A DNA stretch of 32,000 nucleotides from Candidatus Pacearchaeota archaeon CG10_big_fil_rev_8_21_14_0_10_32_14 (GCA_002763085.1 PFCY01000067.1:1-32000), one strand, 5' to 3'; positions 5,322 to 22,251 are shown, counted from the first letter of the stretch. Program-made: numbers and translations. The notes: generated by a model not told the origin, from the sequence alone.

Positions 5322-5672
5322 ATGGCGTCGAAGATAAGAGAAATCACAATTACACAGTCAAAGGGTGCCTTTTCTATATTTAGAAGACAAGAGTCAGGTA
5401 AAGAAGACTATGATTTTTCCGGAGTATTAGCATTAAGACAATTATTGAGTAATGAGAAAGCAAGAATACTTCATGTCATTAAAACCCAGAACCCGTCTTC
5501 AATATATGACCTCGCTAAAAAGCTCAGTCGCAGTTTTAAATCAGTAAACGACGACATAAAACTTCTCGAGCGTTTCGGTCTTGTTGAATTATCTCAGGAA
5601 AAAACAAAAAATCGAATTCGCCATAAACCCAAACTAGTTAGCGATCATATTACTATTAATCTTAAGATATAA
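5322..5672 (+). CDS. Winged helix-turn-helix DNA-binding protein (ArsR/MarR-like putative regulator)
   Basis: 116 aa. Has the pattern ARILHVIKTQNPSSIYDLAKKLSRSFKSVNDDIKLLERFGLVEL, typical of wHTH proteins. It is convergent with the pilin-like array, with stops abutting at 5672/5673. Confidence 0.5.
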   Translation: MASKIREITITQSKGAFSIFRRQESGKEDYDFSGVLALRQLLSNEKARILHVIKTQNPSSIYDLAKKLSRSFKSVNDDIKLLERFGLVELSQEKTKNRIRHKPKLVSDHITINLKI

Positions 5673-6167
5673 CTATTTAGTATAAATTCTCATATCAATT
5701 TTTAGGTCATCTTTCACATTCTTTGTCGGTCCCAAAAAACTCCTTGACGTATTTCCGTAACTGATATTGACTAATGTTTCTCCATCATCAATAATAGCTA
5801 GAGAATAACCTACCATTCCTCCCCTATCATCCGAACTCCAACTCGAGTTCATTATTCCAGTAAGTTCCCTCTCCAAAACCTCACAGCTATCTTTAGAATC
5901 ATAGCACTTCTTTCCTTGAGAACAGTCTTTTATTAAATGAACAATATTCCTATAATCATATTGCGACGTAAGTGCACATTTCGTCGTATACTGTTTCATG
6001 GCTGAAATAAAGCTATCCACCTCATAACTTTCAATCTCTTTCTCACCTTTTTTGTTTACCGAAAAAGCTAAGAAAACGAGTATTATTATCATGACTAGCA
6101 CAATAATTAAAACAAAACCCACCATTTCCTCCTGCCCCCTTCTTTTATAAACCCTCACTTTTTTCAT
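5673..6167 (-). CDS. Pilin-like protein with class-III-type signal peptide (164 aa)
   Basis: N-terminus KRRGQEEMVGFVLIIVLVMIIILVFLAF (basic residues, Gly, short polar stretch, then a hydrophobic helix). ATGA overlap with the upstream gene. Confidence 0.5.
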   Translation of the reverse strand: MKKVRVYKRRGQEEMVGFVLIIVLVMIIILVFLAFSVNKKGEKEIESYEVDSFISAMKQYTTKCALTSQYDYRNIVHLIKDCSQGKKCYDSKDSCEVLERELTGIMNSSWSSDDRGGMVGYSLAIIDDGETLVNISYGNTSRSFLGPTKNVKDDLKIDMRIYTK

Positions 6168-6730
6168 TTTGCTATCTCCTTATTTTCGTATCTTATTTTA
6201 ATTTTGGCAAGCTCACATACCTCAATATTTTTCGTCTCTTCCCTATTATAGATATCTTTTCTGCATAAAGCGACATAGTTTGTAACATAACTTTTTTTGT
6301 TGACTTTTTCATTATATATTGTTATATCTCTACAATTAGGATAATTCTGGAAAGAACATGTAACATTTGACAATAGTTTGGGATAAATTTTCTCTATTTG
6401 AATTTCTGCAACTCCCCAAAAATCACCATAATTCTTTGATTGATCTTTTAGGATCATTAATTTGTCAAAATCTACACAATCAACCTCTCCATCCCTAAAT
6501 GACCGCCCGCATGAAAATTCAGGAGAATTCGCAAGTTTTGAAATTAATTTTCTTGCATTTTGTTCTTCAAGTTCAGTTGCCTTAGCCCTAAGATTACTCA
6601 CTTGATAAACCATAAAGAACATTCCGATTAAAACAAAGAATATCATAATTGCAATTAACATGAACGCCATCTGTTGAATTTTTAATTGACCCAATCTTCT
6701 ACCAAAGACCGCATATTCCGCTATTTCCAT
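6164..6730 (-). CDS. Pilin-like protein with class-III-type signal peptide (188 aa)
   Basis: N-terminus GRRLGQLKIQQMAFMLIAIMIFFVLIGMFFMVY. The start overlaps the upstream gene by 32 nt. Confidence 0.45.
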   Translation of the reverse strand: MEIAEYAVFGRRLGQLKIQQMAFMLIAIMIFFVLIGMFFMVYQVSNLRAKATELEEQNARKLISKLANSPEFSCGRSFRDGEVDCVDFDKLMILKDQSKNYGDFWGVAEIQIEKIYPKLLSNVTCSFQNYPNCRDITIYNEKVNKKSYVTNYVALCRKDIYNREETKNIEVCELAKIKIRYENKEIAK

Positions 6731-7625
6731 TTTTTACCTCCAATTCCTTTACTTGCATTGACATTTGACTTAATGATCTTGAACTTGAATATGTAGAAAC
6801 AGAAATTCCAAGCGTTCCCAAATCCGGCGCCATATTATTCTGACATCCTCTAAGGTTCAAGAAAATAGCTTTTTTCTCATATATTGTATTAAGTTGCTCC
6901 ATTCTTTTCATAAGTCGCTTTATCTGACATTCATAATAATCTTTATCACTAAAAACAGCGCCATAAATCAAATTTCCATCAAAATACAACTCCTCTCCGT
7001 CTTTCACAACATATCCTTGATCATATTTAACAACGACATCACAATTTCTATCACTTGAAAAACAAATTCTTTTCGCTTTCGATGAACAATCAGGATTTAT
7101 CTTAAAATTATCTTGCGATAATCTCCGTAAATCACTTTTTATTTCTGAAGGTGGATCGACAAAACAAAATTCATCGTCTTCACTTGTAATTATTATCATA
7201 TCTGCAACTTTATATGGATAATCAAACGGCATAATAAATAAATAAAATTTCTTTCCTTCTATCTCTTTCTCTGAAAAAATATACTTATTCTGAAAACTCA
7301 CACTATCACTCTGTTCACTAAATTTTCCTAAAGACTCATGCGCAGTGCTTATCGATTGAGATCCAAAGTTTCCATAATCGTCACATTCGAAATCTAGCCT
7401 ACTTCTAGATGGTGTTTCTATAAAATTTGATGAACCACTCTCAATTCCAATCTCAAAAGGATTGAGTAATGTGCCAAGTTCTTTAGAAGAAGCAGTATCT
7501 ATTTCATTATTTTTAAGTCCTATAAATTTTTGAGCCATAAAAAAAGCAAATGCAAGTATTATGACCCCTGCCATTATCGCAAACATCCAACCAAAAGAAA
7601 TATCTAGATAACCTCTTTTCTCCAT
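6699..7625 (-). CDS. Pilin-like protein with class-III-type signal peptide (308 aa)
   Basis: N-terminus MEKRGYLDISFGWMFAIMAGVIILAFAFFMA. Only 1 nt separates it from the upstream stop. Confidence 0.45.
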   Translation of the reverse strand: MEKRGYLDISFGWMFAIMAGVIILAFAFFMAQKFIGLKNNEIDTASSKELGTLLNPFEIGIESGSSNFIETPSRSRLDFECDDYGNFGSQSISTAHESLGKFSEQSDSVSFQNKYIFSEKEIEGKKFYLFIMPFDYPYKVADMIIITSEDDEFCFVDPPSEIKSDLRRLSQDNFKINPDCSSKAKRICFSSDRNCDVVVKYDQGYVVKDGEELYFDGNLIYGAVFSDKDYYECQIKRLMKRMEQLNTIYEKKAIFLNLRGCQNNMAPDLGTLGISVSTYSSSRSLSQMSMQVKELEVKNGNSGICGLW

Positions 7626-7626
7626 T

Positions 7627-8178
7627 TTAGTTCGCCTTTTTTATGATTACGAGTGAACTTCCCTCAACTCTATTTAATGTCACACTTAATTTTCCATCGA
7701 CAGTATCAATGCAATAAGGATTTGTCGTTTTTGTAATTTCATCTAAGTTTATATTATCCATAGTCACAGAATCAACTCCCACACTTGATTTTTCTGGATA
7801 AAAATACATATTTTGTCCGTCTCCAGAATAGAACCCCATTGTCGAATATATTTCTGTACTGCCTCTTCCCCGAACACAACCCCTTCCAGAAGTGACCCCA
7901 CAATTATAATCAATAAAACAAATTTTATCGATTCCTTTCGGAAAAGAATATTCTCCTAAAGAATCGTAATTTCCCCCAGAATTTTTGTGCATATCATTAA
8001 TATCATCTTGAAAATCTTTAATTGAAGTATTCACTTTTATGAATTTTTGAGTATTAAGAACTTTTATTATTGCATAAAATGCCAGCGCCATAAAAATAAT
8101 TATTAACAGAATAGAAAAAATCATCCCAAAAGATAATTCCATCGCACCGATTTTCTTAATTCTTTTCCCTCTTTTCAT
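7627..8178 (-). CDS. Pilin-like protein with class-III-type signal peptide (183 aa)
   Basis: N-terminus KRIKKIGAMELSFGMIFSILLIIIFMALAFYAI. A GGAG lies 6 nt upstream of the ATG and is supplied by the last 37-bp repeat unit. Confidence 0.5.
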   Translation of the reverse strand: MKRGKRIKKIGAMELSFGMIFSILLIIIFMALAFYAIIKVLNTQKFIKVNTSIKDFQDDINDMHKNSGGNYDSLGEYSFPKGIDKICFIDYNCGVTSGRGCVRGRGSTEIYSTMGFYSGDGQNMYFYPEKSSVGVDSVTMDNINLDEITKTTNPYCIDTVDGKLSVTLNRVEGSSLVIIKKAN

Positions 8179-8355: not shown

Positions 8356-10674
8356 TTATGTAGCAGGAGCACTTACCGCATTAGCAAAAGGCCGAGCAAC
8401 AATACTGCACTGGTTAGGATTTGGCTGATTTCCAAACTCATCAGAACATTTTATATAATAATTTGAATTTATGTTCCAATCCGTCGAGTGCTGATTTTCG
8501 TCTGATGTAGAAGAAGTCATCTTTGTTCCATCAGCATACAAATAATTACAAGATTCCTTTCCATAAACACATTCGCTGACTTCATTTGTGATAACTCTTA
8601 ACTTATTATCTTCATCATGATAAATTCTCGTAACAATCGGCGCCTCATTATCTGACTCAACTCTAAACTGAACGGTTGTATTATCTGAATTTCCTCCTAA
8701 ATCTATGCACTTCAAGAAATATTTATAATTTCCTTCAGGTAAATGCAATTCCTGCTTATGTGCAACACTGTTGTAATTCAAATCAGAGAAAAATAATATG
8801 AACGAATCTGTTGCCCCCGTTGTTGAATAATAACAATTTGATTGCCCTTCATTAAATCCCGCGAAAGTTTCTGCTTCAAGATCGACTTTTATAACATTTG
8901 TAGAATCCCTTATTGTTTCATTTGGAGAAACGTCTGTAATCAACAATGGTTGCGAACCTTTAACAGTAAAAATATAACTCTGAAGATTTGGATTTCTGTC
9001 TGCTTCAGGCGCTTGTGGCTGATCAAGACATCTAAAGTAATATTTATTTTCTTCTCTATCTTTAAGTCCAGTCAGTGTCGTTGAACACTTGTAAAGCATC
9101 TGCGCATTCATCTCAAACACCGAGGAAGAACACTTCATTGTATTAGCCATTGTTTTATATTCTCTATCCACAAAATCCCACCTGCAAGTTGCTGGCTCGT
9201 TTACATAAACTTCTAAAGGAAGAGAAGATGTATTATATGCAACTGGCATTCCATTTATCAAATTAGTGCTAACAATTTGTGCAGGAGTTGTGTCAGGTCC
9301 TTTCTCAACACAGAATTGGAATACAAACTCTCCTTCATTTTGATTTCCGTTCGCATCTTGACACGAAACATAAAGTTCATAATCCGCGTCGTTATTTATT
9401 GTAATCTCTTCTCCATTACTGCTCGGTCCAGGCAAACTCAAAATTTGAGTATGATTTCTTAGAAGCAAACTATTTCCTCCAAAGAAGAATTTCATTTCAT
9501 CAAACGGTTTAACTTTTCCGTCGGAATTTCTTACATAATCAATCTTACATTTTGCCGGTTCGTTTGTTGTAACTCCAAACTTAAACGGAGTAAACGCTTT
9601 AACACAACCCGTTTTTGTCTCAGTTGATTTTATGAACGTTCCTCTATTCGGCGGATTCTTTGTGTTGTCTGGAGTATATTTATATCCAGGTGATAAAACG
9701 CTCGTCCAAGGTTCAACGATTGGTGGATCAACATCTTTTCTATTTATCCAAACACATTCTTGATTATCAGTTCCTGCGTTGACTAATTCACATCCTTGTC
9801 CAAGAGATTTACATTGATATTCGCTGCAAGGAAGTATGCTTTGTTTATTGCATTGCTCACAATATTGTCCACCCGTCGGCGCATCCCATGGTAAACATTC
9901 AAACCTAACCGTTTCAGATTTTTCTTTTTTATTCATAAGTAAAAATATTGCTATACCTACTGCTGCTCCTGCAGCTAGCCCCCATCCCATTCCTGCAATG
10001 TTACCAACGAATCTTCCAACTAGAACTCCCGCCCCAATTGCTGCCGTTGCTGCATTTCTTGTCGTTTCGCTGTCCGTTAAAAATCCAGCCGCAAAATAAG
10101 TTATACCTGCAGCTGTTAATCCCCAAGATGCACTCGAAACAAGATTATCCATCATCAAACCATTTGTCATTGAAGTTGCTCCAGGTTTAGGAATATATTC
10201 TTCCTTAACTGGATCCCATGTTGCTTCTTCTCCGAAACCATATATATTTCCAACAGAATTCCATAATCCTCCAGTTTCAGCCTTTGTGGGTTCTTGCTTA
10301 GTTATATCCTTTCCTCCATTGGTTTCATCATTCAATGAAAAATCACTAGGTGGCTCTTTAGATCCACCATATTTTATTTGCGGAGCAGGATATGGTGCGC
10401 TCGAAGGTAAACTGCTAATCTGAGTACCAACGAGTGGGCCTTCTATTCTTCCTGCAGGACTTGAAATTTCTGTACCAACGCCAGCAATCTTCCAACTTTC
10501 TGAACTCTGAAGAGGAATTGATGAAGGAATTCCATCTCGTGGATCTACATCTTGTCCACCAACAATACCAAAACTTAAAGAAATCAAATAAGCAATCGCA
10601 ACAGTCGCAACTATTAAAGTTATAATTTCACTCCCAGCGATTAATTTTAATCCTCTTTTATTTCTTTTTATCAT
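8356..10674 (-). CDS. G2b: large surface protein (772 aa). It has an N-terminal class-III-like signal/TM, a Gly/Ala-rich hydrophobic block, a Cys-knot-like motif and 4 Ig-like repeats. It is homologous to the C-terminal half of the 1339-aa ORF.
   Basis: KRGLKLIAGSEIITLIVATVAIAYL at the N-terminus. ECLPWDAPTGGQYCEQCN..CSEYQCKSLGQGCELVN matches KCLAWQPPVGGDKCGECN..CSKYRCESLGTACRIVN in G1. There are four units ending in YVSCQDANGN, YFRCLDQP, YFLKCIDLGGN and YIKCSDEFGN. Confidence 0.75.
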   Translation of the reverse strand: MIKRNKRGLKLIAGSEIITLIVATVAIAYLISLSFGIVGGQDVDPRDGIPSSIPLQSSESWKIAGVGTEISSPAGRIEGPLVGTQISSLPSSAPYPAPQIKYGGSKEPPSDFSLNDETNGGKDITKQEPTKAETGGLWNSVGNIYGFGEEATWDPVKEEYIPKPGATSMTNGLMMDNLVSSASWGLTAAGITYFAAGFLTDSETTRNAATAAIGAGVLVGRFVGNIAGMGWGLAAGAAVGIAIFLLMNKKEKSETVRFECLPWDAPTGGQYCEQCNKQSILPCSEYQCKSLGQGCELVNAGTDNQECVWINRKDVDPPIVEPWTSVLSPGYKYTPDNTKNPPNRGTFIKSTETKTGCVKAFTPFKFGVTTNEPAKCKIDYVRNSDGKVKPFDEMKFFFGGNSLLLRNHTQILSLPGPSSNGEEITINNDADYELYVSCQDANGNQNEGEFVFQFCVEKGPDTTPAQIVSTNLINGMPVAYNTSSLPLEVYVNEPATCRWDFVDREYKTMANTMKCSSSVFEMNAQMLYKCSTTLTGLKDREENKYYFRCLDQPQAPEADRNPNLQSYIFTVKGSQPLLITDVSPNETIRDSTNVIKVDLEAETFAGFNEGQSNCYYSTTGATDSFILFFSDLNYNSVAHKQELHLPEGNYKYFLKCIDLGGNSDNTTVQFRVESDNEAPIVTRIYHDEDNKLRVITNEVSECVYGKESCNYLYADGTKMTSSTSDENQHSTDWNINSNYYIKCSDEFGNQPNPNQCSIVARPFANAVSAPAT

Positions 10675-10677
10675 TTT
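10644..10677 (-). repeat. 34-bp direct repeat, copy 2 (covers the start codon and first 10 codons of G2b, and the HEPN stop)
   Basis: 33/34 identical to 11285..11318. The plus strand reads attttaatcctcttttatttc(t/g)ttttatcatttt. Confidence 0.9.
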
Positions 10678-11036
10678 AATTTTTTATTGTCTAATTTTTT
10701 TAATTCTTTTTTTAATTGTGGGATTTTATTTTGTATTACGTCCCAAAGAAGTATAGGATTTATTTTAAAGTAAGCATGACTAATAACATTTCTAAAATCA
10801 ATAAAACTTTTTATTTCTGTCTTATAATCTCCCCATAAATTAGGTGGAATTTTTTTTAATGATTCTCCGATTATTTGCATTCTCATACCATTAGAATCAA
10901 TCGCATCTTGATTTCTCGAAAACGAATTAATATCTGATCCTCTAACCGAATTCTCTATATTCTCAATTGCCCTTTCAATGTCTTTAAGCCACAAATTATA
11001 TTTTGACATATTCCACCTCTTTTTTAACATGTTCAA
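10671..11036 (-). CDS. hepT: HEPN-domain (DUF86) toxin of a HEPN/MNT toxin-antitoxin pair
   Basis: Rx4H motif RNVISH near the C-terminal third, with a size typical of DUF86. The more likely start is Met10 (MSKYNLW, nt 11009). The stop shares an ATGA overlap with the G2b start. Confidence 0.75.
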   Translation of the reverse strand: MNMLKKRWNMSKYNLWLKDIERAIENIENSVRGSDINSFSRNQDAIDSNGMRMQIIGESLKKIPPNLWGDYKTEIKSFIDFRNVISHAYFKINPILLWDVIQNKIPQLKKELKKLDNKKLK

Positions 11037-11286
11037 GCTCCGGTTTCAAATCACTTTCAATAACTAAATCAACTTTTCTTTTCGTAATTTTCTCAAGGAA
11101 GTAATGCGTTTTCATATAAGTATCAAAACTGATTTCATTAAATTCAACAAGTAAATCTACATCACTTTTTTCATTTTGCTTATTTTTTACAAATGAACCA
11201 AAAAGTCCTATTTTACTTATACCGATTTTTCTAAGAGTTTCCTTTTCTTTCTCTATACTTTTAATTATTTGAGTTTTTGTTATCAT
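10996..11286 (-). CDS. mntA: Minimal nucleotidyltransferase (MNT) antitoxin
   Basis: GS-x(n)-D-x-D signature: GLFGSFVKNKQNEKSDVDLLVEF. 96 aa. It overlaps the HEPN gene, which is the canonical MNT-then-HEPN order. Confidence 0.8.
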   Translation of the reverse strand: MITKTQIIKSIEKEKETLRKIGISKIGLFGSFVKNKQNEKSDVDLLVEFNEISFDTYMKTHYFLEKITKRKVDLVIESDLKPELEHVKKEVEYVKI

Positions 11287-11318
11287 TTTAATCCTCTTTT
11301 ATTTCGTTTTATCATTTT
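11285..11318 (-). repeat. 34-bp direct repeat, copy 1 (overlaps the G2a 3' end). It encodes a relic mini-ORF, MIKRNKRGLK-stop (11315..11283), duplicated from the G2b 5' end.
   Basis: 33/34 identical to 10644..10677. The relic ORF's TGA overlaps the MNT ATG (ATGA). Confidence 0.9.
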
Positions 11319-13038
11319 GATTTGCTTCATTTTCAGTTATTATTCTATATCCGGTATTATATCCTTGAACATTGATGAAGTTTTTATTATTTCCACAATC
11401 TCCTATCGCTGTACACATATTGTTTTGAGTTAATTCCCACGAACTTTCTAAACATTCACAATTCTCTACACATTTCCACTTTCCGCCAAGCGCTTTCTTT
11501 TCATATTTAACAACACATTCTTTATTCGCCATTGTGCAAAGTGATTGTGCATCTCCTTCCTCCCAAAAATTAAATCCAGGCGCAATTAATGGTAAACAAG
11601 CTCCAGTCTCACTTCCAACACTCTTATCTCTTAAATTCGCTTCATCAACAGGATCTCCAATTGCATTTCCAGTTATGCCACTTCCAGATGTTGTAGTTGT
11701 CGTCGTACTTGTGAATGGTTGAGAATTTGCCGTGCTCGGAAATGCTTCTCTAGCTTTTACATCCGACGCCGCTTCTTGTCTCGGTGCATTTATTTCTAAT
11801 CCAGGATACCATTTACAATCTCTTGCATCAATATTTTCACAGTCTAATTTATTGACTTGAGCAAAACAATCTTGCCATTTATTTGGCCTGCACGCCGCAA
11901 CTTTATAATCATTCACACTACTCTGAATACAAATTTCTTGTCTAAAATCTGAACAAGGCTCGACGGTAACTTCTCCATTATAACAAAGCATTCTAAAATG
12001 CCTGCTTCCCGGAAGACTTTTACCAATTCCTTTTGCATTATAACACCACGTCTCTCCATGCTGATAATGTTCATTTTCAAAATCACAAGACAAATCTCTA
12101 CAAACATAATCTCCATATTTCGGTCGAGACGAATCTTGACTTTGGCTGTATGCTTTACAAGTTGAACCTAAAAAATAATCACAATTTCCACACGACGCAC
12201 CCTGAACTCCAGTATTAGCAGAATTAGGATTACAACTTTCTTCTATTGGAACAACCTTACTCCAATAAAGAGTATCATCAGCACCACCATCAACTTTTGA
12301 AGCATCATAAATATTAGCTAAATTCCCACACGTATCAACAAAATAAACTTCATCTCTACCTTCAACACAAGTCGTTTTCTCACTCTTACCGCAAGATGTT
12401 CCTAAACTTTCGTCAGAACACAAAAACCCCGGATGAAAACTGACCGTTGAATTATCATCGATATTATCCGTTCCTTTAAGATCGTTGCATTCTTTTTGTG
12501 TCACAAATTTACATGTTATATCAAATTCTTTTTCATAAACGCAAGCGCCTTTTACATCTGAAGTAGCTGATGCAATACATTCGACTTCGTTAGTGATATC
12601 ACGTCTATAATTTGTTTCAAGTCCATAAAGTTTTGAAAGCCGTTTACATCTTGTCTGAGTAACAAATGCCGCCTGATCATTTAATAAACAACATCCTAAA
12701 TTACACTGAGGTGGAAGTCCATTCACCGCATCTTTCCAAACTCCTCCTTCTATATCACAAACTTTCTCAGGAGTATTTTCACTACATGTTCCTTCATTTG
12801 AATCAATACAATATCCCATTCTGCAATATGATGCAGCCGCACATGATGTTGGTGTACTTCTAAGTTCACCGCTCGTATCGCATTCAGATTGCGGCGCGTT
12901 TTGACACCATGCACCCGTCTTTGTTTTTTCACAACAATATGAAACTTCTTGACTTGATACAATAATTGACGAATATAAAAAAGCGATAGCTAAAATTAGA
13001 AATATTCCTAAAATAAAACCTCTTTTTCTCATTCCCAT
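11299..13038 (-). CDS. G2a: secreted Cys-rich protein (579 aa), homologous to residues ~104-606 of the 1339-aa ORF
   Basis: Signal/TM RKRGFILGIFLILAIAFLY and dozens of Cys. Shared blocks include TCVEGRDEVYFVDTCGNLANIYD (G1: TCVDGRDEIYFLDSCGNVGNIYD), PGSRHFRMLCYNGEVTVEPCSDFRQEICIQS (G1: PGSRHWKRICIDGKVKIEPCQDYRGQICVQS) and CTAIGDCG (G1: CMSIGDCG). Confidence 0.75.
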   Translation of the reverse strand: MGMRKRGFILGIFLILAIAFLYSSIIVSSQEVSYCCEKTKTGAWCQNAPQSECDTSGELRSTPTSCAAASYCRMGYCIDSNEGTCSENTPEKVCDIEGGVWKDAVNGLPPQCNLGCCLLNDQAAFVTQTRCKRLSKLYGLETNYRRDITNEVECIASATSDVKGACVYEKEFDITCKFVTQKECNDLKGTDNIDDNSTVSFHPGFLCSDESLGTSCGKSEKTTCVEGRDEVYFVDTCGNLANIYDASKVDGGADDTLYWSKVVPIEESCNPNSANTGVQGASCGNCDYFLGSTCKAYSQSQDSSRPKYGDYVCRDLSCDFENEHYQHGETWCYNAKGIGKSLPGSRHFRMLCYNGEVTVEPCSDFRQEICIQSSVNDYKVAACRPNKWQDCFAQVNKLDCENIDARDCKWYPGLEINAPRQEAASDVKAREAFPSTANSQPFTSTTTTTTSGSGITGNAIGDPVDEANLRDKSVGSETGACLPLIAPGFNFWEEGDAQSLCTMANKECVVKYEKKALGGKWKCVENCECLESSWELTQNNMCTAIGDCGNNKNFINVQGYNTGYRIITENEANQNDKTK

Positions 13039-13190
13039 TTTATTTTTTCAAACTCCTTAAATGAATTAAAATCGAAACCATTAGTCCGAATGCAGATATA
13101 ATCATCTGATTTAAACTGAAACATTGAGTATTTACTACAATCAAAGATAGATAAATGAGTATAAAAAAATTCAGTAGATTTCCAAGCCAT
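13029..13190 (-). CDS. Possible 53-aa ORF (MAWKSTEFFYTHLSIFDCSKYSMFQFKSDDYICIRTNGFDFNSFKEFEKIKWE), not in the supplied track
   Basis: Hand translation. It fills the gap between the 57-aa gene and G2a. Its TGA forms an ATGA overlap with Met3 of G2a (nt 13032). There is no family support, and it could simply be a leader carrying the AAGGAG SD of G2a. Confidence 0.25.
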   Translation of the reverse strand: MAWKSTEFFYTHLSIFDCSKYSMFQFKSDDYICIRTNGFDFNSFKEFEKIKWE

Positions 13191-13209
13191 GTTAACAATT
13201 CTTACTCCA

Positions 13210-13383
13210 TTATTTTATTAAAATTTTAATTATCCCATAAATGAGAATTATGATCGCGATTATCCCTAATGCCCATAAAATATAATCCATCCAATTTATT
13301 TTTTTCACACTCTTTTTCCTCATTTTTTCATTTCCTTTTTTTAATTTTTCTCCAGGGTCTTTTTCTAAAAGAGCCTTTTTCAT
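13210..13383 (-). CDS. Small single-pass membrane protein, 57 aa (MKKALLEKDPGEK...WMDYILWALGIIAIIILIYGIIKILIK)
   Basis: The track ORF begins at a TTG (13410) inside P2. The ATG at 13383 makes an ATGA overlap with the P2 stop. Clear C-terminal TM helix. Confidence 0.5.
   Translation of the reverse strand: MKKALLEKDPGEKLKKGNEKMRKKSVKKINWMDYILWALGIIAIIILIYGIIKILIK
13345..13383 (-). repeat. 39-bp perfect direct-repeat partner of 8254..8292
   Basis: tttttctccagggtctttttctaaaagagcctttttcat is identical at both loci, with the flanking bases differing on both sides. Confidence 0.9.
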
Positions 13384-14174
13384 GCTCCTATTCCATATCC
13401 AGGTGGCCAAGCAACACTTCTCGACGCAAACTGAAATTTACTTTCTGGATTGTTTCTATCTGTTAAAATATAAATCGTCGTCCCGTCGCCCTCTTTGTAT
13501 TTCTCCACCTTAAGGTCAGGATAGATATTCATGTATGTTGTCGTTTCCGCATCCCCATATTTTGTTTCATATTCGAGGATGCTTGAAGCAATACCTATAT
13601 GTTCATAAAGATTATTATTCAAAACTATCTCTAATCTATCGATCGTCGACGTCTCATCACCTTTTTTAATAGTGAGTTCTCTATTGAAAGTAACTAAAAT
13701 TCTTTGAGGCAATAGTTCTGCGCTCGTCACATTTTTTTTCACAATGTTTATTGAATAGCCCTCATTTTCATATTGTGCTATAAGATCATTAAAACAAGAA
13801 TTTTCTTCCTCTTTGATTCCTTTAACTATTTCATCAGCAACTTGTTTAAAGAGCAATGGTTGTTGCATCACACATGTTTTATAATATTCATTTGTATAAC
13901 ATAAATATTCAATCTTACTTCCTTTATACTCGTAAAATAACTCCGGCTCTAAATAACCTCCTTGATTAGAAAGATTAACGACGACTTCACTGACTTTGTC
14001 TTCCAAACAATTTTGAATAAAACTTTGTGGAGATACTTTATTTCCGCCAGTTATATCTTTTATATTCGGCCAAAACATATAGAATAAAATCGCAGCAAAA
14101 ACGACTATCACAGCTATTATGATAAATATTGTAACTTGTCCCTTACGATGCAATATTCCCTCTTTTCCAATCAT
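13380..14174 (-). CDS. P2: pilin-like protein with class-III-type signal peptide (264 aa), paralog of P1
   Basis: HRKGQVTIFIIIAVIVVFAAILFY. It aligns with the 260-aa ORF at CLED, QGGY, YLCY, Q(Q/E)PLL, CF, YPD..(V/I)EK, TIY, F.FA.R and the C-terminal PPG(Y)GIG. Confidence 0.6.
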   Translation of the reverse strand: MIGKEGILHRKGQVTIFIIIAVIVVFAAILFYMFWPNIKDITGGNKVSPQSFIQNCLEDKVSEVVVNLSNQGGYLEPELFYEYKGSKIEYLCYTNEYYKTCVMQQPLLFKQVADEIVKGIKEEENSCFNDLIAQYENEGYSINIVKKNVTSAELLPQRILVTFNRELTIKKGDETSTIDRLEIVLNNNLYEHIGIASSILEYETKYGDAETTTYMNIYPDLKVEKYKEGDGTTIYILTDRNNPESKFQFASRSVAWPPGYGIGA

Positions 14175-14195
14175 TTTATTTTAACGAATACACAA

Positions 14196-14203
14196 TTTAT
14201 AAA
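14196..14203 (-). promoter_or_regulatory. TATA-like box TTTATAAA, 22 nt upstream of the P2 start (possible internal, near-leaderless promoter)
   Basis: Located in the 37-bp gap between the G1 stop (14212) and the P2 ATG (14174). Confidence 0.3.
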
Positions 14204-14211
14204 CTTTTTAT

Positions 14212-17200
14212 TTAGTTATATGATGCTTCCGGATAAACTTTTATAGCGCAATCGCCATTTATATTTCCGAAAACATCTTTGCATTTTATGAAGTAAGTAA
14301 TCCCGCTGTTCCACGGAGCGCTATGTTTTGTATCAAATACATTTGTCATCCTGTTCACAGTGTCGTCGCCTAAATTAAAATCACATCTATTATTTGTATA
14401 CGAACAAGCTGCTTCTTCATCTGTAATAATTTCTAAACCATTTCTATATAAAACTCTCACAACTTTCGGTGGCTCATCATCAATTCTCACACTAAAAGTC
14501 GTATTCGCATATGCAACTTCCCCCGCAGTATCTCTGCACTTAAAAAATAATTGATGATTTCCTTCTAAATATTGCAGTCCTCTTTGAGTATGGGTTGAAG
14601 CTAAAGTATTAAAGAACTCAATCATTCCAGTATCCACTCCGCTCTGACTAAAAGCGCAGGAAGATACTCCATTATTTCCACCACCAGTTGTCCTAAGTTC
14701 AAGATCAACCAATATTTGAGGAGTATAACCTGAAACAATTTCTCCTTTTGGTTTTACAACTTCAATTTGTAATAAATTCTCAACAATATTTAGAGTGTAA
14801 GAATATCCATCATTTGTATTTCTACTCTCCCCAGGTTTAGGAGTGTATTCCTCATAATCAAGCCAAGGTTGATCTCTGCATTTTATGAAATAAGAATTCT
14901 CTCCTCTCGTAAGTCCGTTTAAAGTAGTATAACAGCTATATCCCAAAGATGAAACTTCATCTACAAATTCAGAACAATTTAAACCAAAACTCATTTCATC
15001 ATAAGGAACATTTCCAACAGACGCAAGTTCGTATTTACATTCTGCTGGCTCATTCAAGTTAACGATTAAAGTTACATTTTGAGTGTTATGATTCAATTGC
15101 GCGCCATCTTGAGGATAAATAGAAGTGATTCTTGGCGGAGTTAAATCCGGACCTTCTTCGACGCAGAAATCAACTAAATAATCTCGAGTATTGATATTTC
15201 CTTGTATATCTTGACATTTTATATAAAACTTTGTCGCGCCAATTCTATCTCTTATATCTCCTTCAAGATCTCTTACATCAAGACTGCTCAAACTCGGCAT
15301 CTTTATATCCAGGGTATGATTAAATAAATATAATGTGGTGTCGATATCAGTAAACTCCATTTCTTCATATTGCGTTCCACTCACTGTCGAAAGTTTACAC
15401 TGCGCAACTTCATCAGTTGTAAGAGTGAATTCAACATTTGTAAATTCAGGTATACATGCACCATCGTCTCTTCTGACTTTAACATGTTCATTTTCAACTT
15501 CATCTTCAAATCTATATCCTTCATCAACTACTCCCGATTTTATGAATGGAGGAGAATGATCATTTGCATTTATCTCTTCACATCTTGCATCTTTAGTATC
15601 GTCATTTACAATCCTACACGCCGTTCCTAAACTTTCACATCTATATTTACTACAAGGATACATTTCAGAATCAACATTACATTCACCGCATTTATCACCG
15701 CCGACAGGAGGTTGCCACGCCAGACATTTAAATTCAACGGGGATTTGTTTCGTTTCACCTATTCCTATTATTCTCATGATTACTGCAACTATTACAGCGA
15801 CTACAACCGCCCATATTAATGCTGTCAATGCCACTCCAAGTCCTCCAGCTAAAAATCCTGCTCCACCACCAAATAAATTCGCTCCAATAAATCCTGATAT
15901 TCCTCCAGCAATCATTCCTCCAGCAACTACTGCCATCGCTGCTTGCCCTTCAAGTCCAAATATTTTTGCAACAAAAAATCCAACTGTCGCTCCAGTTCCT
16001 ATTCCACTAAATGCCGCCATAAATCCTCCAGCGCTAACTGCCGTCGCTGGTGTAGCTCCATTAATAGCGGTCATGCTATATGGAACAGGCGATCCCGCTG
16101 CTTGAAGACCCGGATTGAATGTCATTGCATATATCGGTGAACTAGCCGCAGCTCCAGCTCCAGCTGTTGAACTTCCCACTCCTAAAAATCCAATCACACT
16201 AGCAACAGTTCCAATACCTCCCGCATAAAGTCCAATTTGTCTAAGTAATGCTAAAGTTTTATTATTTTGATCAAGTTCATTTCCGTCAGAATCTCTAAGT
16301 GGAGTTCCAGTTGCATTTAGAATTTGATTTATATCTTTAGGTTTTGCATATAATCCTTCGATAACTTCGTCATATTCACTAATTTTATTTAAGTATTCTG
16401 AAGTCAGTCCAGGAGATCTTGATATACTATAACTTTGAGACAAATCGCCGACGTAATTTACACTCGCTCCGCAGTCTCCTATTGACATGCACAGATCATT
16501 CATCTTATCAGCAAAGCCAGCCTCAGTACATGCTTTGTTTGCTTTCCATACCCATCTTATTCTCGGACGACCATTCCTGAAATGAATTTCTTTGACTTTG
16601 ACTGCAATGCAAGTTCTGCTCGCAAGAGAGCATAAATCTTGAGATAAAGTTCTTTGATCTGGAGCTAAATCAAAACCACGAGGGTATTTCGGAACACACA
16701 TATCAAACTTGAATTTATCCGCAGCATCAACAGTTTTAACGAAACAATCTTCATTAGAATTACAATCTTGTATCATACTAGAAACTCCGCTAGCTCTAGA
16801 TTCGTCACTATCTTCAACTCCGTCCCTAGAATTATAACTCAAACATTCAATTGCCTCATTTAATTTACATGAAGATACAGAAAATTCATCTCCATTTTCG
16901 CTTTCTATTTCACTTTGTACACATATTTGACCACGATAGTCTTGACAAGGCTCGATTTTCACTTTTCCATCAATGCAAATTCTTTTCCAGTGCCTGCTTC
17001 CGGGTGTATCTCTTCCTTCTCCAATCGCTCCGTCATACACACACCAACTTTCTCCATTCTTTCTATATCTATTTCCAGTCTGTTCGCTTGAAGGACAATT
17101 CATGTTTAAACATTGTAATGTTCCCGACGAAGATTCACCACATCTACTTCCTAAAAATCTATTACAATTACCGCAAGAATTAGACTCGGCATTTCCATTT

Positions 17201-18231
17201 TCAGATTCACTTCCGCAAGTATCAACTTTACTTACAACTGTATTCCAATAAGTCGGATCATCTTTTCTTGCTTCATCATAAATGTTTCCAACATTTCCGC
17301 AACTGTCTAAAAAATAAATTTCATCTCTTCCATCAACACATGTTGTGTCAGTTGTTTTTTCACATATTGTATTTAATTCTTCATTTGAACAGAGTTTACC
17401 TTGATATGAGGTTCCGCCATCTAATACACATTGTCGCGCCGATATAAACCTACACCTGTTTCCCTCTTCTTCTTCGACGGTAAATACACATGCCCCCTTC
17501 TCTTCAGTTTCAGCTTGGGCTAAACATTCATATTCTGTTTTTATATCTGATCTAAACGGATCTCCATTATATCTATCTCCAGCCATATATCTGCATGCCT
17601 GTTCCGTCGTAAAGATCGCTTCATCTCCTAAAACACAACATCCTTTGACACACGCATTATCCGGAATTTGTAGATCTATACAGCTCTCATCTCCGGGATT
17701 ATCAGCCACAAATCTAACATTATCTCCATGACATTCTCCAAGAGTTGACATTGGACTGCAAGTTCCAAAGTGATCATCTATGCAACATCCAACTCTGCAT
17801 CTTGCATCATTTTCGCACAATGTCGGCGAAATTGGCGAACTCGAACTGCAAATTCTTGAAACCTCTGTGCTGAGTATGTCCTGACAAATCGCTCCACTGT
17901 TTGTTAACGCGCAGCAATTCATCATCGGCTCACCAGTCAATTCTATATCATTTGATGGAGGTGTCAACGTGTTTCCAGGAATTAAATTATCACTATCACT
18001 TTGTGCAGAAACACTTGGAATTAAATCAGCTTCATTTATTGCAAAATTAATTATTTTTGAGAAAATATTTTCTCCATCTGTTTCTATGATTATTCCATCA
18101 TTCAACACTGATTCAGATTCATGAATAGTATAAGCAAAAGCAAAAGTTGCAATTATTAAAATTGAAATTTCTAAAAATACTAAAAAGTGTTTATTATATC
18201 CCATTATCCAATTCCGGGAGGGATTCCACAT
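14212..18231 (-). CDS. G1: giant Cys-rich surface protein (1339 aa; 1330 aa if it starts at Met10, nt 18204). It is a fusion-equivalent of G2a + G2b.
   Basis: N-terminal TM FLVFLEISILIIATFAFAYTI. Cys-rich domain at residues ~104-606. Gly/Ala-rich hydrophobic block at ~664-822. Cys motif at 836-884. Four Ig-like repeats extend to the C-terminus. The Met10 ATG shares one base with the P1 stop (TAATG). Confidence 0.8.
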   Translation of the reverse strand: MWNPSRNWIMGYNKHFLVFLEISILIIATFAFAYTIHESESVLNDGIIIETDGENIFSKIINFAINEADLIPSVSAQSDSDNLIPGNTLTPPSNDIELTGEPMMNCCALTNSGAICQDILSTEVSRICSSSSPISPTLCENDARCRVGCCIDDHFGTCSPMSTLGECHGDNVRFVADNPGDESCIDLQIPDNACVKGCCVLGDEAIFTTEQACRYMAGDRYNGDPFRSDIKTEYECLAQAETEEKGACVFTVEEEEGNRCRFISARQCVLDGGTSYQGKLCSNEELNTICEKTTDTTCVDGRDEIYFLDSCGNVGNIYDEARKDDPTYWNTVVSKVDTCGSESENGNAESNSCGNCNRFLGSRCGESSSGTLQCLNMNCPSSEQTGNRYRKNGESWCVYDGAIGEGRDTPGSRHWKRICIDGKVKIEPCQDYRGQICVQSEIESENGDEFSVSSCKLNEAIECLSYNSRDGVEDSDESRASGVSSMIQDCNSNEDCFVKTVDAADKFKFDMCVPKYPRGFDLAPDQRTLSQDLCSLASRTCIAVKVKEIHFRNGRPRIRWVWKANKACTEAGFADKMNDLCMSIGDCGASVNYVGDLSQSYSISRSPGLTSEYLNKISEYDEVIEGLYAKPKDINQILNATGTPLRDSDGNELDQNNKTLALLRQIGLYAGGIGTVASVIGFLGVGSSTAGAGAAASSPIYAMTFNPGLQAAGSPVPYSMTAINGATPATAVSAGGFMAAFSGIGTGATVGFFVAKIFGLEGQAAMAVVAGGMIAGGISGFIGANLFGGGAGFLAGGLGVALTALIWAVVVAVIVAVIMRIIGIGETKQIPVEFKCLAWQPPVGGDKCGECNVDSEMYPCSKYRCESLGTACRIVNDDTKDARCEEINANDHSPPFIKSGVVDEGYRFEDEVENEHVKVRRDDGACIPEFTNVEFTLTTDEVAQCKLSTVSGTQYEEMEFTDIDTTLYLFNHTLDIKMPSLSSLDVRDLEGDIRDRIGATKFYIKCQDIQGNINTRDYLVDFCVEEGPDLTPPRITSIYPQDGAQLNHNTQNVTLIVNLNEPAECKYELASVGNVPYDEMSFGLNCSEFVDEVSSLGYSCYTTLNGLTRGENSYFIKCRDQPWLDYEEYTPKPGESRNTNDGYSYTLNIVENLLQIEVVKPKGEIVSGYTPQILVDLELRTTGGGNNGVSSCAFSQSGVDTGMIEFFNTLASTHTQRGLQYLEGNHQLFFKCRDTAGEVAYANTTFSVRIDDEPPKVVRVLYRNGLEIITDEEAACSYTNNRCDFNLGDDTVNRMTNVFDTKHSAPWNSGITYFIKCKDVFGNINGDCAIKVYPEASYN

Positions 18232-18986
18232 CCCCTTACCGCAAATACAAATTCTTCATTTGTCGTTTTATGTTTAATTGAATAAATTGTAGAACTATCC
18301 TCTGCTCTGAATTTTTCTATATCATAATCAGGATACAAAACCATATAGCCAGTCTGCTCAAAATTACAAAACCAAGATTCTTGACTGATAATTTCTTGAA
18401 CAACGCTTGAAAGATCATAAAATTTAGACATCTTCACGACCTTGATGTTCTCAAGTTTTCGTTTTTCTCCATCTTTACTTATGACGAATTCATTATTTAT
18501 TTTTAGAATTACCCTGTCAGGAACTAGTTCAACATCAAAACTCAAATCATCGACTGAAATGTCGGCTGTAAAATCTTCTTTCTCAAGCTCATCATTAAGT
18601 TTAAGAAAACAATTTTTCAATTCTTCTTCAATATCATCATGAATTTCATTCTGAAGATGTCTTAGTAAAAGTGGCTCTTGATTTATGCACCTCTGATAAT
18701 TGTTTATATTGTAGCATAAGTAGGCAACATCCTTTCCCCCATAATTTATTGTTAAATTGCTTTCAGCATATCCTCCTTGCGAAGAAATTTTGTTCAGCGA
18801 TGCCGTCAAATCATCTTCTAAACATAGATCAACATAAGTTTCTGGATCAAAATTTGTTTTCTTTGAAATTTGGGGTTTTATATCACCCCTTAAAAGTAAA
18901 AATAATAAAATCAAGACAACGATTAAAACTCCTATTATTACAAACATCGTTACCTGACTTCTTTTATTTTTAGCATAATATTTCAT
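18204..18986 (-). CDS. P1: pilin-like protein with class-III-type signal peptide (260 aa), paralog of P2
   Basis: KNKRSQVTMFVIIGVLIVVLILLFLLL. Full-length similarity to the 264-aa ORF. The start forms an ATGA overlap with the RHH gene's stop. Confidence 0.6.
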   Translation of the reverse strand: MKYYAKNKRSQVTMFVIIGVLIVVLILLFLLLRGDIKPQISKKTNFDPETYVDLCLEDDLTASLNKISSQGGYAESNLTINYGGKDVAYLCYNINNYQRCINQEPLLLRHLQNEIHDDIEEELKNCFLKLNDELEKEDFTADISVDDLSFDVELVPDRVILKINNEFVISKDGEKRKLENIKVVKMSKFYDLSSVVQEIISQESWFCNFEQTGYMVLYPDYDIEKFRAEDSSTIYSIKHKTTNEEFVFAVRGCGIPPGIG

Positions 18987-19135
18987 TTTTTCCTTTTCAT
19001 TTCTTCATACAGTAATTTAATTGCCTCTTCAATTGCATGAGATTTATTTCTGTAATATGAATTCTTCATTATTTCATCCAGAAGTTTTTCAGTTTTCTCA
19101 TCAATAGTCGCCGATACTCTTGATTTTTCAGCCAT
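18983..19135 (-). CDS. Ribbon-helix-helix (CopG/Arc/MetJ-like) DNA-binding protein, 50 aa; not in the supplied ORF track
   Basis: Hand translation: MAEKSRVSATIDEKTEKLLDEIMKNSYYRNKSHAIEEAIKLLYEEMKRKK. It has the RHH layout: an N-terminal beta-strand (RVSATID) followed by two helices. GAGG lies 5 nt upstream of the ATG, and the TGA overlaps the ATG of P1. Confidence 0.6.
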   Translation of the reverse strand: MAEKSRVSATIDEKTEKLLDEIMKNSYYRNKSHAIEEAIKLLYEEMKRKK

Positions 19136-19163
19136 TTTCCTCTTTTAATTGTAATACAAAATA

Positions 19164-19220
19164 TATTTAGTAATAACAAATATATTTTATAACACTAAGT
19201 TTACTATGTATTACTAAATA
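19164..19220 (-). promoter_or_regulatory. 12-bp perfect inverted repeat (tatttagtaata at 19164..19175, tattactaaata at 19209..19220) flanking a TATA-like box (about 19183..19192). Candidate operator/promoter of the RHH-led array.
   Basis: The arms are exact reverse complements separated by 33 bp. On the minus strand, TTATAAAATA lies between them, about 50 nt upstream of the RHH ATG. Confidence 0.3.
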
Positions 19221-19267: not shown

Positions 19268-19675
19268 TTAAATTTGAGTTTTTCCTGCTAAATATAATTC
19301 GACATCAACTCCAAGACCTGCAAGTTGAATTAGATTGGGTTTTCTGGCAGGAAGCATATGGGCTTCATTAGCTGTATAATCGACAAGCGGTCCAATGTTT
19401 AGTCCAGCAAGTTGAATATCATTTAATGGTCCTTCTCCTCTTAACATCTTAGCCTCGTGCGCCATATTACAAAAAGGATCCCAATTCCATCGGTTAGCTT
19501 GCAACTCTTTTATCCGTGTTTCATCCTCAGGATGTTCTTGAAGATATTTTTCCTTTTCATCCCGCCCACCTCTTATCAAATCACATAAATAGGAAGTATG
19601 CTCTCTTTCTTCTCTCCCTACTTCAACAGAATCTTTTATCGCCTCATAAAATGTTTCCAAGAATTCATTGCCCAT
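19268..19675 (-). CDS. Hypothetical soluble protein (135 aa) with an internal N(D/L)IQLAGL repeat
   Basis: ORF only; no family recognised. Confidence 0.4.
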   Translation of the reverse strand: MGNEFLETFYEAIKDSVEVGREEREHTSYLCDLIRGGRDEKEKYLQEHPEDETRIKELQANRWNWDPFCNMAHEAKMLRGEGPLNDIQLAGLNIGPLVDYTANEAHMLPARKPNLIQLAGLGVDVELYLAGKTQI

Positions 19676-19728
19676 TACTCATAATGTTCGTTGAAGTTTA
19701 AATAGTTTTATGTAATCCACAAAAGAAA

Positions 19729-19980
19729 TTATTTTTTAACTGATTGAGGATATTCATCTCTTAGAATCTTCAATAAGTCTTCTTTTATTTGATTTCCTGA
19801 TTTATTTCTAAACCCACGGCCTTCAGAACCTTCATATTCGTAATAACCTCTGGAAAATCCGCTCATATATATTTCAATAACTTTTTCTTCATATTCGCGG
19901 GCTATATCTCCAATTTTGACTATGTCTTTTGAAACAAGTCTCAAGAATTCTTTATACGCCTTTTCATCTTCTTCATTCAT
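19729..19980 (-). CDS. Hypothetical small soluble protein (83 aa)
   Basis: ORF only; no family recognised. Confidence 0.35.
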   Translation of the reverse strand: MNEEDEKAYKEFLRLVSKDIVKIGDIAREYEEKVIEIYMSGFSRGYYEYEGSEGRGFRNKSGNQIKEDLLKILRDEYPQSVKK

Positions 19981-20913: not shown

Positions 20914-22251
20914 ATGGAACAAAACAATTCTTATAAAAGTCAAAATGAAAGCGAAGAGGTTTCACAAAAAGAAAAAAGAGTTAGAAATCTGACAGCTTTG
21001 TATTATTCTCGCCCGGAAATCCAAAAAGCGATGTATGAATTTTCCAAAAATCGAGAAATCGCTCCAAGGTTCTTTGAGGGATTTGGAAAAAGACCGGACG
21101 TTCTTCAGTATTACTCTGACATTTTTTCTCTTTCACAAAAAGGGGCGACATCATTTCATTGTAGCGAAGAATTATGGAGTGATCCACTTCAGATTGTAAC
21201 TGGGATGAACGAAAAACAAGCAAACGAGCTTAGGATTGGATGGGATTTATTGATTGATATTGATTCAAAATATATTGATTACAGTAAAGTCTGTGCAAAG
21301 ATAATAATAAAATTCTTGGAATTTCAGGGAATAAAAAATATCGGAATAAAATTTTCAGGGAGTAAGGGATTTCATATAATAGTGCCATGGAAAGCATTTC
21401 CAAAAATTGTTTTCGGTCAAAAGTCTTCAGAGATGTTTCCAGAGTGGCCAAGGATAATTTCAAGATATATTACTGAAAGAGTAAAAGATGGATTAGTAAA
21501 AGAACTTTCAAAACTAACGATAGGACCGACTTCAGCATATATAAAAGACCAAACCGTCTCACAACTTGTAATGCCAGATATAATTCTCGTCTCATCCAGA
21601 CATTTATTCCGTATGCCATATTCCCTCCACGAAAAGACCGCTTTAGCAAGTATTGTTCTCGATAAAGATAAAATAATGGATTTTGATGTCCAAGATGCAA
21701 ATCCACTCAAAGTCACAAAAGAAAAGATTTATCCATTTAATCCAGAAAATACGAAAGATGGCGAGGCCTCCCGTCTTTTAATGCAAGCACTCGATTGGTA
21801 TAAAGATCAAAACATAAACGAAGACACACAAACGCAATCATCAAGAAACTTCGACTTCAAACCGATAAAACTTGAAAAAATTTCCGACGAGTTTTTTCCC
21901 CCTTCAATAAAACAGATTCTTCAGGGCGTACAAGATGGTCGCAAGCGCGCATTATTTATTTTGATAAATTTATTTAGGTCCATAGGGATGGAAAAAGATG
22001 AACTTGAAAAAAGAATTTACGATTGGAACAATAAAAATGAAGTCCAGCTTAAAACAGGTTACATAAAATCTCAATTAATGTGGTCTTACAGAAATAAGAT
22101 TGTTCCCCCCCCAAATTTTGACAAATATTATTATCAAGGCATAGGCGTCATTCCGACACCCGAAGAAATACGACTAAGAAATCCTATTAATTACGTCCTT
22201 AAAAAATCAGAAATGCAAAATCAAAATCAAAATAAAGTTAAGAAAAAATAA
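20914..22251 (+). CDS. priS: Archaeo-eukaryotic DNA primase: PriS-type catalytic domain fused to a PriL-C-terminal-like helical domain
   Basis: AEP motifs are present: WDLLIDIDSK (DxD), KFSGSKGFHIIVPW (sGxGfH) and SSRHLFRMPYSLHEKT. The C-terminal FFPPSIKQILQGVQDGRKRALFILINLFRSIGMEKDELEKRIYDW resembles the FPPC(M/I)..L...GR....L..FL...G motif of PriL/Pri2, but with Ser in place of Cys. Confidence 0.8.
   Translation: MEQNNSYKSQNESEEVSQKEKRVRNLTALYYSRPEIQKAMYEFSKNREIAPRFFEGFGKRPDVLQYYSDIFSLSQKGATSFHCSEELWSDPLQIVTGMNEKQANELRIGWDLLIDIDSKYIDYSKVCAKIIIKFLEFQGIKNIGIKFSGSKGFHIIVPWKAFPKIVFGQKSSEMFPEWPRIISRYITERVKDGLVKELSKLTIGPTSAYIKDQTVSQLVMPDIILVSSRHLFRMPYSLHEKTALASIVLDKDKIMDFDVQDANPLKVTKEKIYPFNPENTKDGEASRLLMQALDWYKDQNINEDTQTQSSRNFDFKPIKLEKISDEFFPPSIKQILQGVQDGRKRALFILINLFRSIGMEKDELEKRIYDWNNKNEVQLKTGYIKSQLMWSYRNKIVPPPNFDKYYYQGIGVIPTPEEIRLRNPINYVLKKSEMQNQNQNKVKKK

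Follow-up and report, generated by a model that had tools for sequence, protein, structure and literature searches.

What does an archaeal cell build from a block of pilin-like genes that encodes one giant cysteine-rich protein whole and its neighbouring paralogue in two pieces? The block lies on the minus strand, from position 19135 down to 5673, of a 32,000-nucleotide stretch of DNA from Candidatus Pacearchaeota archaeon CG10_big_fil_rev_8_21_14_0_10_32_14 (GCA_002763085.1 PFCY01000067.1:1-32000), which was analysed as a whole and is called the window here. A sequence-only reading had taken it for a one-strand array with a duplicated module, in which a pilin-like protein precedes a giant Cys-rich surface protein, and the open reading frame (ORF) map agrees that every gene from 19135 to 5673 is on the minus strand. 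We find that the array encodes six pilin-like proteins (P1, P2 and S1 to S4) and two giant Cys-rich membrane proteins, the fused G1 and a second one, G2, that is split into G2a and G2b. Its product may be a surface complex based on pilins, with each P paired to its own G and a disulfide linking the halves of G2, a reading to which we assign a probability of roughly 0.45. The coordinates of the first gene inventory all hold, but the MntA/HepT pair between G2a and G2b had been overlooked. The array genes are as follows, with arrows marking putative processing sites:

18983..19135, minus: RHH leader, 50 aa, ribbon-helix-helix (CopG-type) DNA-binding protein; stop overlaps the P1 start (ATGA)
18204..18986, minus: P1, 260 aa, class III motif KRS↓QVTMFVII, alpha/beta ectodomain, 6 Cys; putative partner of G1
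14212..18204, minus: G1, fused giant, 1330 aa from Met10, where the database gene call also places the start (18204); the longest ORF reaches up to 18231
13380..14174, minus: P2, 264 aa, P1 paralogue, class III-like motif RKG↓QVTIFIII, 4 Cys; putative partner of the G2 module
11299..13038, minus: G2a, 579 aa, split N-terminal half (GN), own signal peptide, 43 Cys
10996..11286, minus: MntA-type nucleotidyltransferase, predicted antitoxin of a type VII toxin-antitoxin (TA) pair, between G2a and G2b
10671..11036, minus: HepT-type HEPN RNase, predicted toxin; stop overlaps the G2b start (ATGA)
8356..10674, minus: G2b, 772 aa, split C-terminal half (GC), 21 Cys
7627..8178, minus: S1, 183 aa, pilin-like, orthologue consensus KRG↓QMQLSFGMIFSIILI, 4 Cys
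6699..7625, minus: S2, 308 aa, pilin-like, KRG↓YLDISFGWMFAI, 8 Cys
6164..6730, minus: S3, 188 aa, pilin-like, RLG↓QLKIQQMAFMLIA, 6 Cys
5673..6167, minus: S4, 164 aa, pilin-like, RRG↓QEEMVGFVLII, 4 Cys; last array gene

The paralogies on which the idea of a duplicated module depends were borne out by alignment. P1 and P2 share 33% identity over 255 aa (E = 7e-46). G1 residues 96-476 match G2a at 34% identity (E = 2e-63), and a 66-sequence alignment pushes this homology to about G2a residue 553, with C481...C548 invariant and a GDCG motif. G1 residues 759-1337 match G2b residues 172-765 at 32% identity (E = 1e-79). The four C-terminal repeats described earlier were recovered by hhalign with probabilities of 92-98% (E from 6e-7 to 5e-14); self-BLAST did not detect them. 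Most gene junctions had been described as short overlaps. In the sequence, four are tight (ATGA at RHH/P1, HepT/G2b and S3/S4; TAATG at P1/G1), but three are loose, with 37 nt between G1 and P2, 341 nt between P2 and G2a, and 177 nt between G2b and S1.

Is the arrangement peculiar to this genome? We fetched 80 loci from species representatives and labelled their ORFs by BLAST against the window proteins; the genomes with matches bear the labels Pacearchaeota, Woesearchaeota or Nanoarchaeota. Among GTDB species representatives, at least 586 stretches matched. G1 has at least 384 homologues, nearly all of 1150-1390 aa and all without a name. The usual order begins with genes for two surface proteins (y432 and y711) and primase, read in the opposite direction, and continues in the direction of the array with PCNA, a small regulator, P, fused G, P, split GN, split GC and S1 to S4; a helix-turn-helix (HTH) gene then points back toward S4, and an S-layer-like gene follows in the array direction. 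P and G occur together in every surveyed locus, with P lying 5′ of G1 in 72/72 loci and another P downstream in 72/75. Of 63 loci, 62 have a second G, split in 57 and fused only in 5, and 1 has none. In one lineage group G2b is the last gene of the array, S genes are lacking, and Hjc and an aminoacyl-tRNA synthetase come next; the invariant core is therefore P-G-P-Ga-Gb. A phmmer search of the full library with G2b returned 1221 cluster representatives at E ≤ 1e-30, and about 143 of the best 150 relatives (~95%) have the length of a split G2b. Together these comparisons indicate that the split G2 is the dominant state worldwide and that the locus is a conserved operon of Pacearchaeota/Woesearchaeota (GTDB Nanoarchaeota). 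The operon is not described in the literature searched. A set of 51 mostly unknown families common to Pacearchaeota and Woesearchaeota has been reported as "Module 98" (Castelle et al. 2021, PMC8204110), and the operon families may be among them.

The fused and split pair noted at first is thus real, but local diversification, which had been offered as its origin, does not describe it, as the layout is ancestral and conserved in the 80 species representatives. In neighbour-joining trees, which carry no support values, the split sequences (69 GN and 35 GC) all group as a single clade (G2), apart from an always-fused G1 clade. Five fused proteins at the last module position are nested within G2 at two or more places, so switches between the fused and split states have occurred at least twice. 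The branching of the P tree follows that of the G tree, with a single clade holding all 71 P genes located before a split G2a, so P and G duplicated as a unit and co-evolved. These topologies point to an ancient duplication of the P+G unit, in which the G1 copy is always fused and the G2 copy usually split. At its N-terminus, G2b has a signal/anchor like that at the start of fused G and unlike an internal segment, and in one fused G2 the first 143 residues present in its split sister are missing; fission therefore took more than a stop codon.

Given the position of the MntA/HepT genes, exactly between G2a and G2b, the split copy could be a decaying pseudogene, freshly broken by their insertion, and the two modules a case of ongoing local diversification. 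Extra module copies do occur in a few genomes (loci L014, L020, L022, L037, L043 and L059), with three modules in a few genomes, and the nesting of fused G2 among split forms shows that the state is not fixed. However, the TA pair is not the cause of the split, because most species are split without TA genes, including L002, where the halves overlap by 4 nt. Each split half also keeps its own conserved export signal, the parity of its Cys count is maintained (see below), and the split length predominates among G2b relatives, as already given. The cassettes, moreover, are found at two different junctions, with no grouping by junction. The survey of related loci refutes a recently broken gene, which we consider extremely improbable, and insertion of the TA pair as the cause of the split was rejected.

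The assignment of the pair itself comes from Pfam, where MntA matches NTP_transf_2 (1.4e-13, 51.5 bits against a cut-off of 21) and HepT matches HepT-like (1.6e-16, 60.6 bits against 23.5). With both genes above the Pfam thresholds, MntA/HepT is classed by sequence as a type VII toxin-antitoxin pair; both score below the 60 bits that NCBIfam sets as equivalog cut-offs (44.1 and 32.4), and the MntA_antitoxin match (1.5e-11) falls under its own. MntA/HepT cassettes lie inside the operon in about 10 of 80 species (the window and L009, L011, L013, L017, L021, L065, L066, L070 and L077), always co-directional, at either the P2/G2a or the G2a/G2b boundary, and the stop of HepT overlaps the start codon that follows. 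Their MntA identities range from 36 to 80%, and HEPN-domain ORFs occur in 5 further loci. Both Pfam families and the usual overlapping antitoxin-toxin order are those of known HepT/MntA modules, whereas here the modules are co-directional within a surface-protein operon and recur at two junctions. Possible TA remnants in the 341-nt P2-G2a and 177-nt G2b-S1 gaps gave weak matches only (best E = 0.001 over 18 aa) and were discounted. In L068 (18619-21627), one G2b orthologue is 1003 aa long and contains, at residues 93-228, a Hint/PT-HINT (intein-like) domain; this falls within the linker that connects the N-terminal anchor to the membrane region.

How might a protein made in two pieces still work? 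The cysteines suggest an answer. Cys content reaches 7.4%, and in the window GN and GC contain 43 and 21 Cys, both within G1 and as the separate G2a and G2b. The count in mature split G2a is odd in 62 of 64 orthologues (range 39-47), and that in split G2b is odd in 33 of 35; where both halves are complete, both are odd in 30 of 34 loci. Fused G proteins taken whole have an even number in 34/41, P proteins in 151/154, and S1 to S4 in all cases. Exactly 21 Cys columns are conserved in GC, 7 in a membrane-proximal knot and 4+4+2+4 in the repeats. Odd parity persists while the absolute counts vary, and the rare even-Cys exceptions show no co-variation between G2a and G2b. The odd counts in both halves suggest that one disulfide links G2a to G2b. 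We hypothesize that all cysteines are paired and that a single bond joins GN to GC, re-joining the two chains in module 2. An anchored chain and a distal chain held on one disulfide are known from influenza HA1-HA2 and retroviral SU-TM, which is the arrangement proposed here from odd Cys counts. Those chains, however, arise by proteolysis of one precursor, whereas G2a and G2b come from two genes, with a putative link and no similarity to the viral folds.

G1 consists, in order, of an N-terminal signal/anchor, the GN ectodomain (43 Cys), four Gly-rich hydrophobic segments, and a GC part of 21 Cys made of the 7-Cys knot and four Ig-like repeats. G2a has no membrane segment after its signal. G2b starts with a signal/anchor of the family type, followed by a low-complexity linker, hydrophobic Gly-rich segments, the knot and the four repeats, and all 21 of its Cys lie beyond residue 255. 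The AlphaFold2 (AF2) model of G2a has a pLDDT of 76, with residues 30-410 mostly above 88, and Foldseek found no significant match for it, either in the PDB (best E = 1.6) or among viral models in BFVD (best E = 0.21). Pfam and NCBIfam gave no match to GN or P, and hidden Markov model (HMM) profiles of G and split GC returned nothing at E ≤ 1 against PDB sequences. The modelled GN has a new fold without a known structural relative, and the earlier statement that these Cys-rich domains fall outside characterised families stands across Pfam, NCBIfam, PDB sequence profiles and Foldseek against PDB and BFVD. The GC repeats are likely beta-sandwiches, as Big_13 matches them in 18 of 28 orthologues (E ≤ 0.01, best 1.2e-6), with 15.6 bits for the window G2b and 29.1 for the L014 orthologue against a cut-off of 27.

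The middle of G contains four conserved Gly-rich hydrophobic segments; since their number is even, both ectodomains could face the same side of the membrane, in line with the pilin-based surface complex. Another possibility is that G forms an oligomeric channel, cell-cell bridge or fusion device through these glycine-zipper-like segments, for uptake of host metabolites, with ectodomains that dock onto the host membrane and pilin-like proteins as accessories. The nearly invariant Gly positions between the two ectodomains would suit such a device, as would the minimal metabolism and host-attached state reported for these organisms (PMC7906910, PMC8204110), and two paralogues that are always kept would fit a hetero-oligomer. 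The membrane region is, however, the least conserved part of G, the locus holds no energy-coupling component, and there is no similarity to a transporter, fusogen or viral glycoprotein. We regard a channel or fusion device as unlikely.

The alternative that we favour starts from the small proteins. Basic residues, then Gly, Ala or Ser, usually Gln, and then a hydrophobic helix make up the archaeal class III signal-peptide pattern (see also bioRxiv 10.64898/2026.04.22.720090). The same kind of signal, RGQ↓VGIGTLIVF, is found on Haloferax pilins and archaellins, and the P and S motif resembles it. A motif of the form [KR]..[G/A/S]↓Q followed by a hydrophobic helix is present in P (154/157), S1 (26/26), S2 (26/26), S3 (26/26) and S4 (25/25), and we conclude from this pattern that P1, P2 and S1 to S4 carry a predicted class III (type IV prepilin-like) signal. 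The archaeal type IV pilins, among them PilA1-6 of Haloferax volcanii and the Epd pilins of Methanococcus maripaludis, are alike in their short basic N-terminus, G/A at -1, Gln at +1 and helix of about 20 residues, and in having several paralogues side by side (bioRxiv 10.64898/2026.04.22.720090). They differ in that the proteins here match no pilin profile, have Cys-rich ectodomains and, in P1, an alpha/beta fold, and have no gene for an ATPase, platform protein or peptidase nearby. When 75 orthologues of S1, S3 and S4 were scanned with Pfam for pilin families, only scattered chance matches turned up; against PDB sequences the P profile found nothing at E ≤ 1 except one chance-level match (0.28), and the S2 profile found no match. 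P proteins also end in a conserved tail, C..IPPG[FIY], with no membrane helix after it, and this tail is therefore not a PGF-CTERM signal. Elsewhere in the window (513-1049), a 178-aa archaeosortase-like membrane protein gives a weak exosortase/archaeosortase (EpsH) match (E = 7.7e-6).

Several observations weigh against a pilin-based complex. Pfam and NCBIfam pilin models do not match P or S1 to S4. In the AF2 model of P1 (pLDDT 86), a membrane helix is joined by a flexible linker to an alpha/beta domain, for which Foldseek against the PDB found no pilin or other match (best E = 5.7e-3, TM 0.15). When the neighbours within 10 kb of the 80 loci were clustered and scanned, they included Hjc, an AI-2E transporter, FtsZ and aminoacyl-tRNA synthetases, and no pilus ATPase, platform protein or prepilin peptidase; in the window with its 10-kb flanks, no class III signal peptidase (PibD/FlaK/EppA) was seen. 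In about half of the loci with enough flank, the array stops after G2b, with no S1 to S4 adjacent to it. G is kept at 30-55% identity across orders with all Cys retained, which would be unusual for a host-specific adhesin. Hydropathy counting left the membrane topology of G2b and fused G2 unsettled. Lastly, the disulfide link is read from Cys parity by itself, among related sequences whose kinship makes simple binomial p-values overstate the support.

Some of these points fit a different account, in which the operon encodes a housekeeping envelope scaffold that anchors or organises the S-layer or envelope biogenesis, rather than an adhesin or a filament. P and S1 to S4 would then be uncleaved monotopic membrane proteins like FlaF/FlaG of the archaellum, each with a pilin-like helix, and G a connector between membrane and S-layer. 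Near-universal conservation as a single locus with strict gene order, the strong sequence conservation of G, a conserved linkage to the S_layer_C-like gene and to surface proteins y711 and y432, the lack of an assembly ATPase or platform gene within 10 kb in the 80 loci, and a P1 model with a flexible tether in place of a continuous pilin helix all suit such a scaffold. There is also a precedent in FlaF, an S-layer-binding protein with a pilin-like N-terminus (PMC4425475). FlaF and FlaG are, like the proteins here, monotopic with a pilin-like helix, and they form no filament and bind the S-layer (PMC4425475); they show no sequence or fold similarity to P and S, in which a G↓Q motif that looks like a cleavage site is retained. 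Against the scaffold, G/A at -1 and Gln at +1 are conserved in five families and resemble a processing site and not an anchor alone, the linkage to the S-layer gene is confined to the lineage group in which S1 to S4 are adjacent, and neither FlaF/FlaG nor S-layer proteins resemble the products of the array. A scaffold is a possible answer, though we think the odds are against it. The sequence-only reading had inferred an adhesin or host-contact structure, and a housekeeping envelope role fits the strong conservation about equally well. Its placement of the proteins at the surface is likely correct, because they carry signal peptides or membrane anchors together with paired cysteines.

We speculate that the pilin-based complex would work as follows. 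An archaeal prepilin peptidase would cut P and S1 to S4, whose hydrophobic N-terminal helices would hold a short stalk, pilus-like or bindosome-like, or else a membrane-anchored bundle. This bundle would associate with G, anchored through its four glycine-rich membrane segments, and each P would bind its own G. Outside the cell, one intermolecular disulfide would re-join G2a and G2b, corresponding to the GN-GC bond inside fused G1. The complex may then mediate contact, either with a host cell, as Pacearchaeota are reported to be strongly host-attached (PMC7906910), or with the cell's own envelope. The small leader regulator, RHH here, would control transcription, and the MntA/HepT pair would be a passenger inserted at a gene boundary.

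Two known systems are close to this scheme in parts. The Sulfolobus bindosome (Bas) displays large ectodomains on pilin-like N-termini and uses the small pilin-like BasABC, and the linker in P1 is similar; however, the array locus has no substrate-binding domains, ABC transporter or BasE/BasF, and G lacks a consistent class III motif. At the minor-pilin/PilY1 tip of bacterial type IV pili and the GspH-I-J-K pseudopilus tip of type II secretion systems, as here, four small pilin-like proteins accompany a very large non-pilin surface protein. There is no homology to these tips, and the present system differs in being archaeal, in having a polytopic G with two ectodomains, and in S1 to S4 being unlinked in about half of the lineages.

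What surrounds the array? The repeats within and before it and the first genes beyond S4 are:

19151..19187, no strand assigned: direct repeat, 19-nt period, 1.9 copies, Tandem Repeats Finder score 60; directly 5′ of the RHH gene
13345..13375, minus: 31-nt repeat, single copy, directly after the P2 stop codon
8179..8284, minus: 31-nt repeat, three exact tandem copies with a 37-nt period, immediately 5′ of S1
5322..5672, plus: winged-helix regulator of the HVO_A0114 family, convergent (Pfam PF25212, 6.6e-17); position kept in 23 loci
2498..4993, minus: S-layer-like secreted protein, 831 aa (Pfam S_layer_C, 1.9e-4, just under the cut-off)

The leader gene scores 23.8 bits with Pfam RHH_1, above the 20.5-bit threshold (E = 4.1e-5), so the array is RHH-led in the window, as first described, but this is not general. 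About 13 loci have an orthologous RHH gene, about 28 a winged-helix protein of about 61 aa (FaeA-like/HTH_24), and L060 an AbrB/MazE-like protein; among loci L002-L083 the leader has undergone non-orthologous replacement. The 19-nt-period repeat may be a candidate operator, and an AT-rich TATA-like stretch lies further 5′ of it. Two ORFs between PCNA and RHH (135 and 83 aa; 19268-19980) have no counterpart in 83 related loci. The 31-nt element, GGCTCTTTTAGAAAAAGACCCTGGAGAAAAA, occurs in 4 exact copies in the window, on the minus strand, against 0 expected by chance; no copy was found in the 83 related loci, its RNA fold is not significant (z = -1.4), and Rfam and tRNA scans of the window gave no match.

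The S-layer-like gene follows the HTH gene in 18 loci and is a conserved neighbour whose membership of the apparatus is not shown. On the other side, a fused PriS-PriL primase (20914-22251) adjoins PCNA, and its synteny with the operon is conserved; in L004, L036 and L048 the primase is about 890-970 aa long owing to a LAGLIDADG intein inside it. Beyond the primase lie two more surface proteins, y711 (23247-25382), which has 34 Cys, a membrane helix at its C-terminus and a tail rich in Pro, and y432 (25445-26743), which has a signal peptide and likewise a C-terminal membrane helix. Pfam matches neither, and both are conserved in 33-41 loci. A PIN-domain (VapC-like) protein (29890-30273, E = 6.5e-15) is a second toxin-type gene in the window. 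PCNA, the fused primase, the archaeosortase-like and S_layer_C-like proteins and other secreted or anchored proteins near the array fit a DPANN archaeon, P1 is 100% identical to a protein from Candidatus Pacearchaeota archaeon CG10, and the expectation of a small-genome archaeon was borne out.

Of the archaea not yet in culture, Pacearchaeota and Woesearchaeota rank among the most abundant and diverse; their genomes are minimal, and they are presumed to be host-attached. We know of no molecular apparatus that accounts for this lifestyle. The operon is a cluster of pilin-like and large surface proteins with new folds and an unusual pair of fused and split paralogues, and it is a strong candidate for the host-attachment apparatus, being kept in hundreds of species as about 10 genes and about 4,500 codons of a tiny genome. 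More tentatively, it could represent an undescribed envelope machine that defines the Pacearchaeota/Woesearchaeota lineage, a pilin-primed apparatus for host contact or nutrients whose G proteins would form a new class of membrane proteins with two ectodomains and new folds, one paralogue being made from two genes whose products join again extracellularly by a single, conserved intermolecular disulfide; this broader view we hold to be possible rather than probable. The operon offers confidently modelled domains without a known structural relative, and concrete targets for metaproteomics, cryo-electron tomography (cryo-ET) labelling and structure determination. It also presents a clean evolutionary case, in which fused and split versions of one protein have long coexisted side by side, and Cys parity gives a simple, testable account of how the split version still works.

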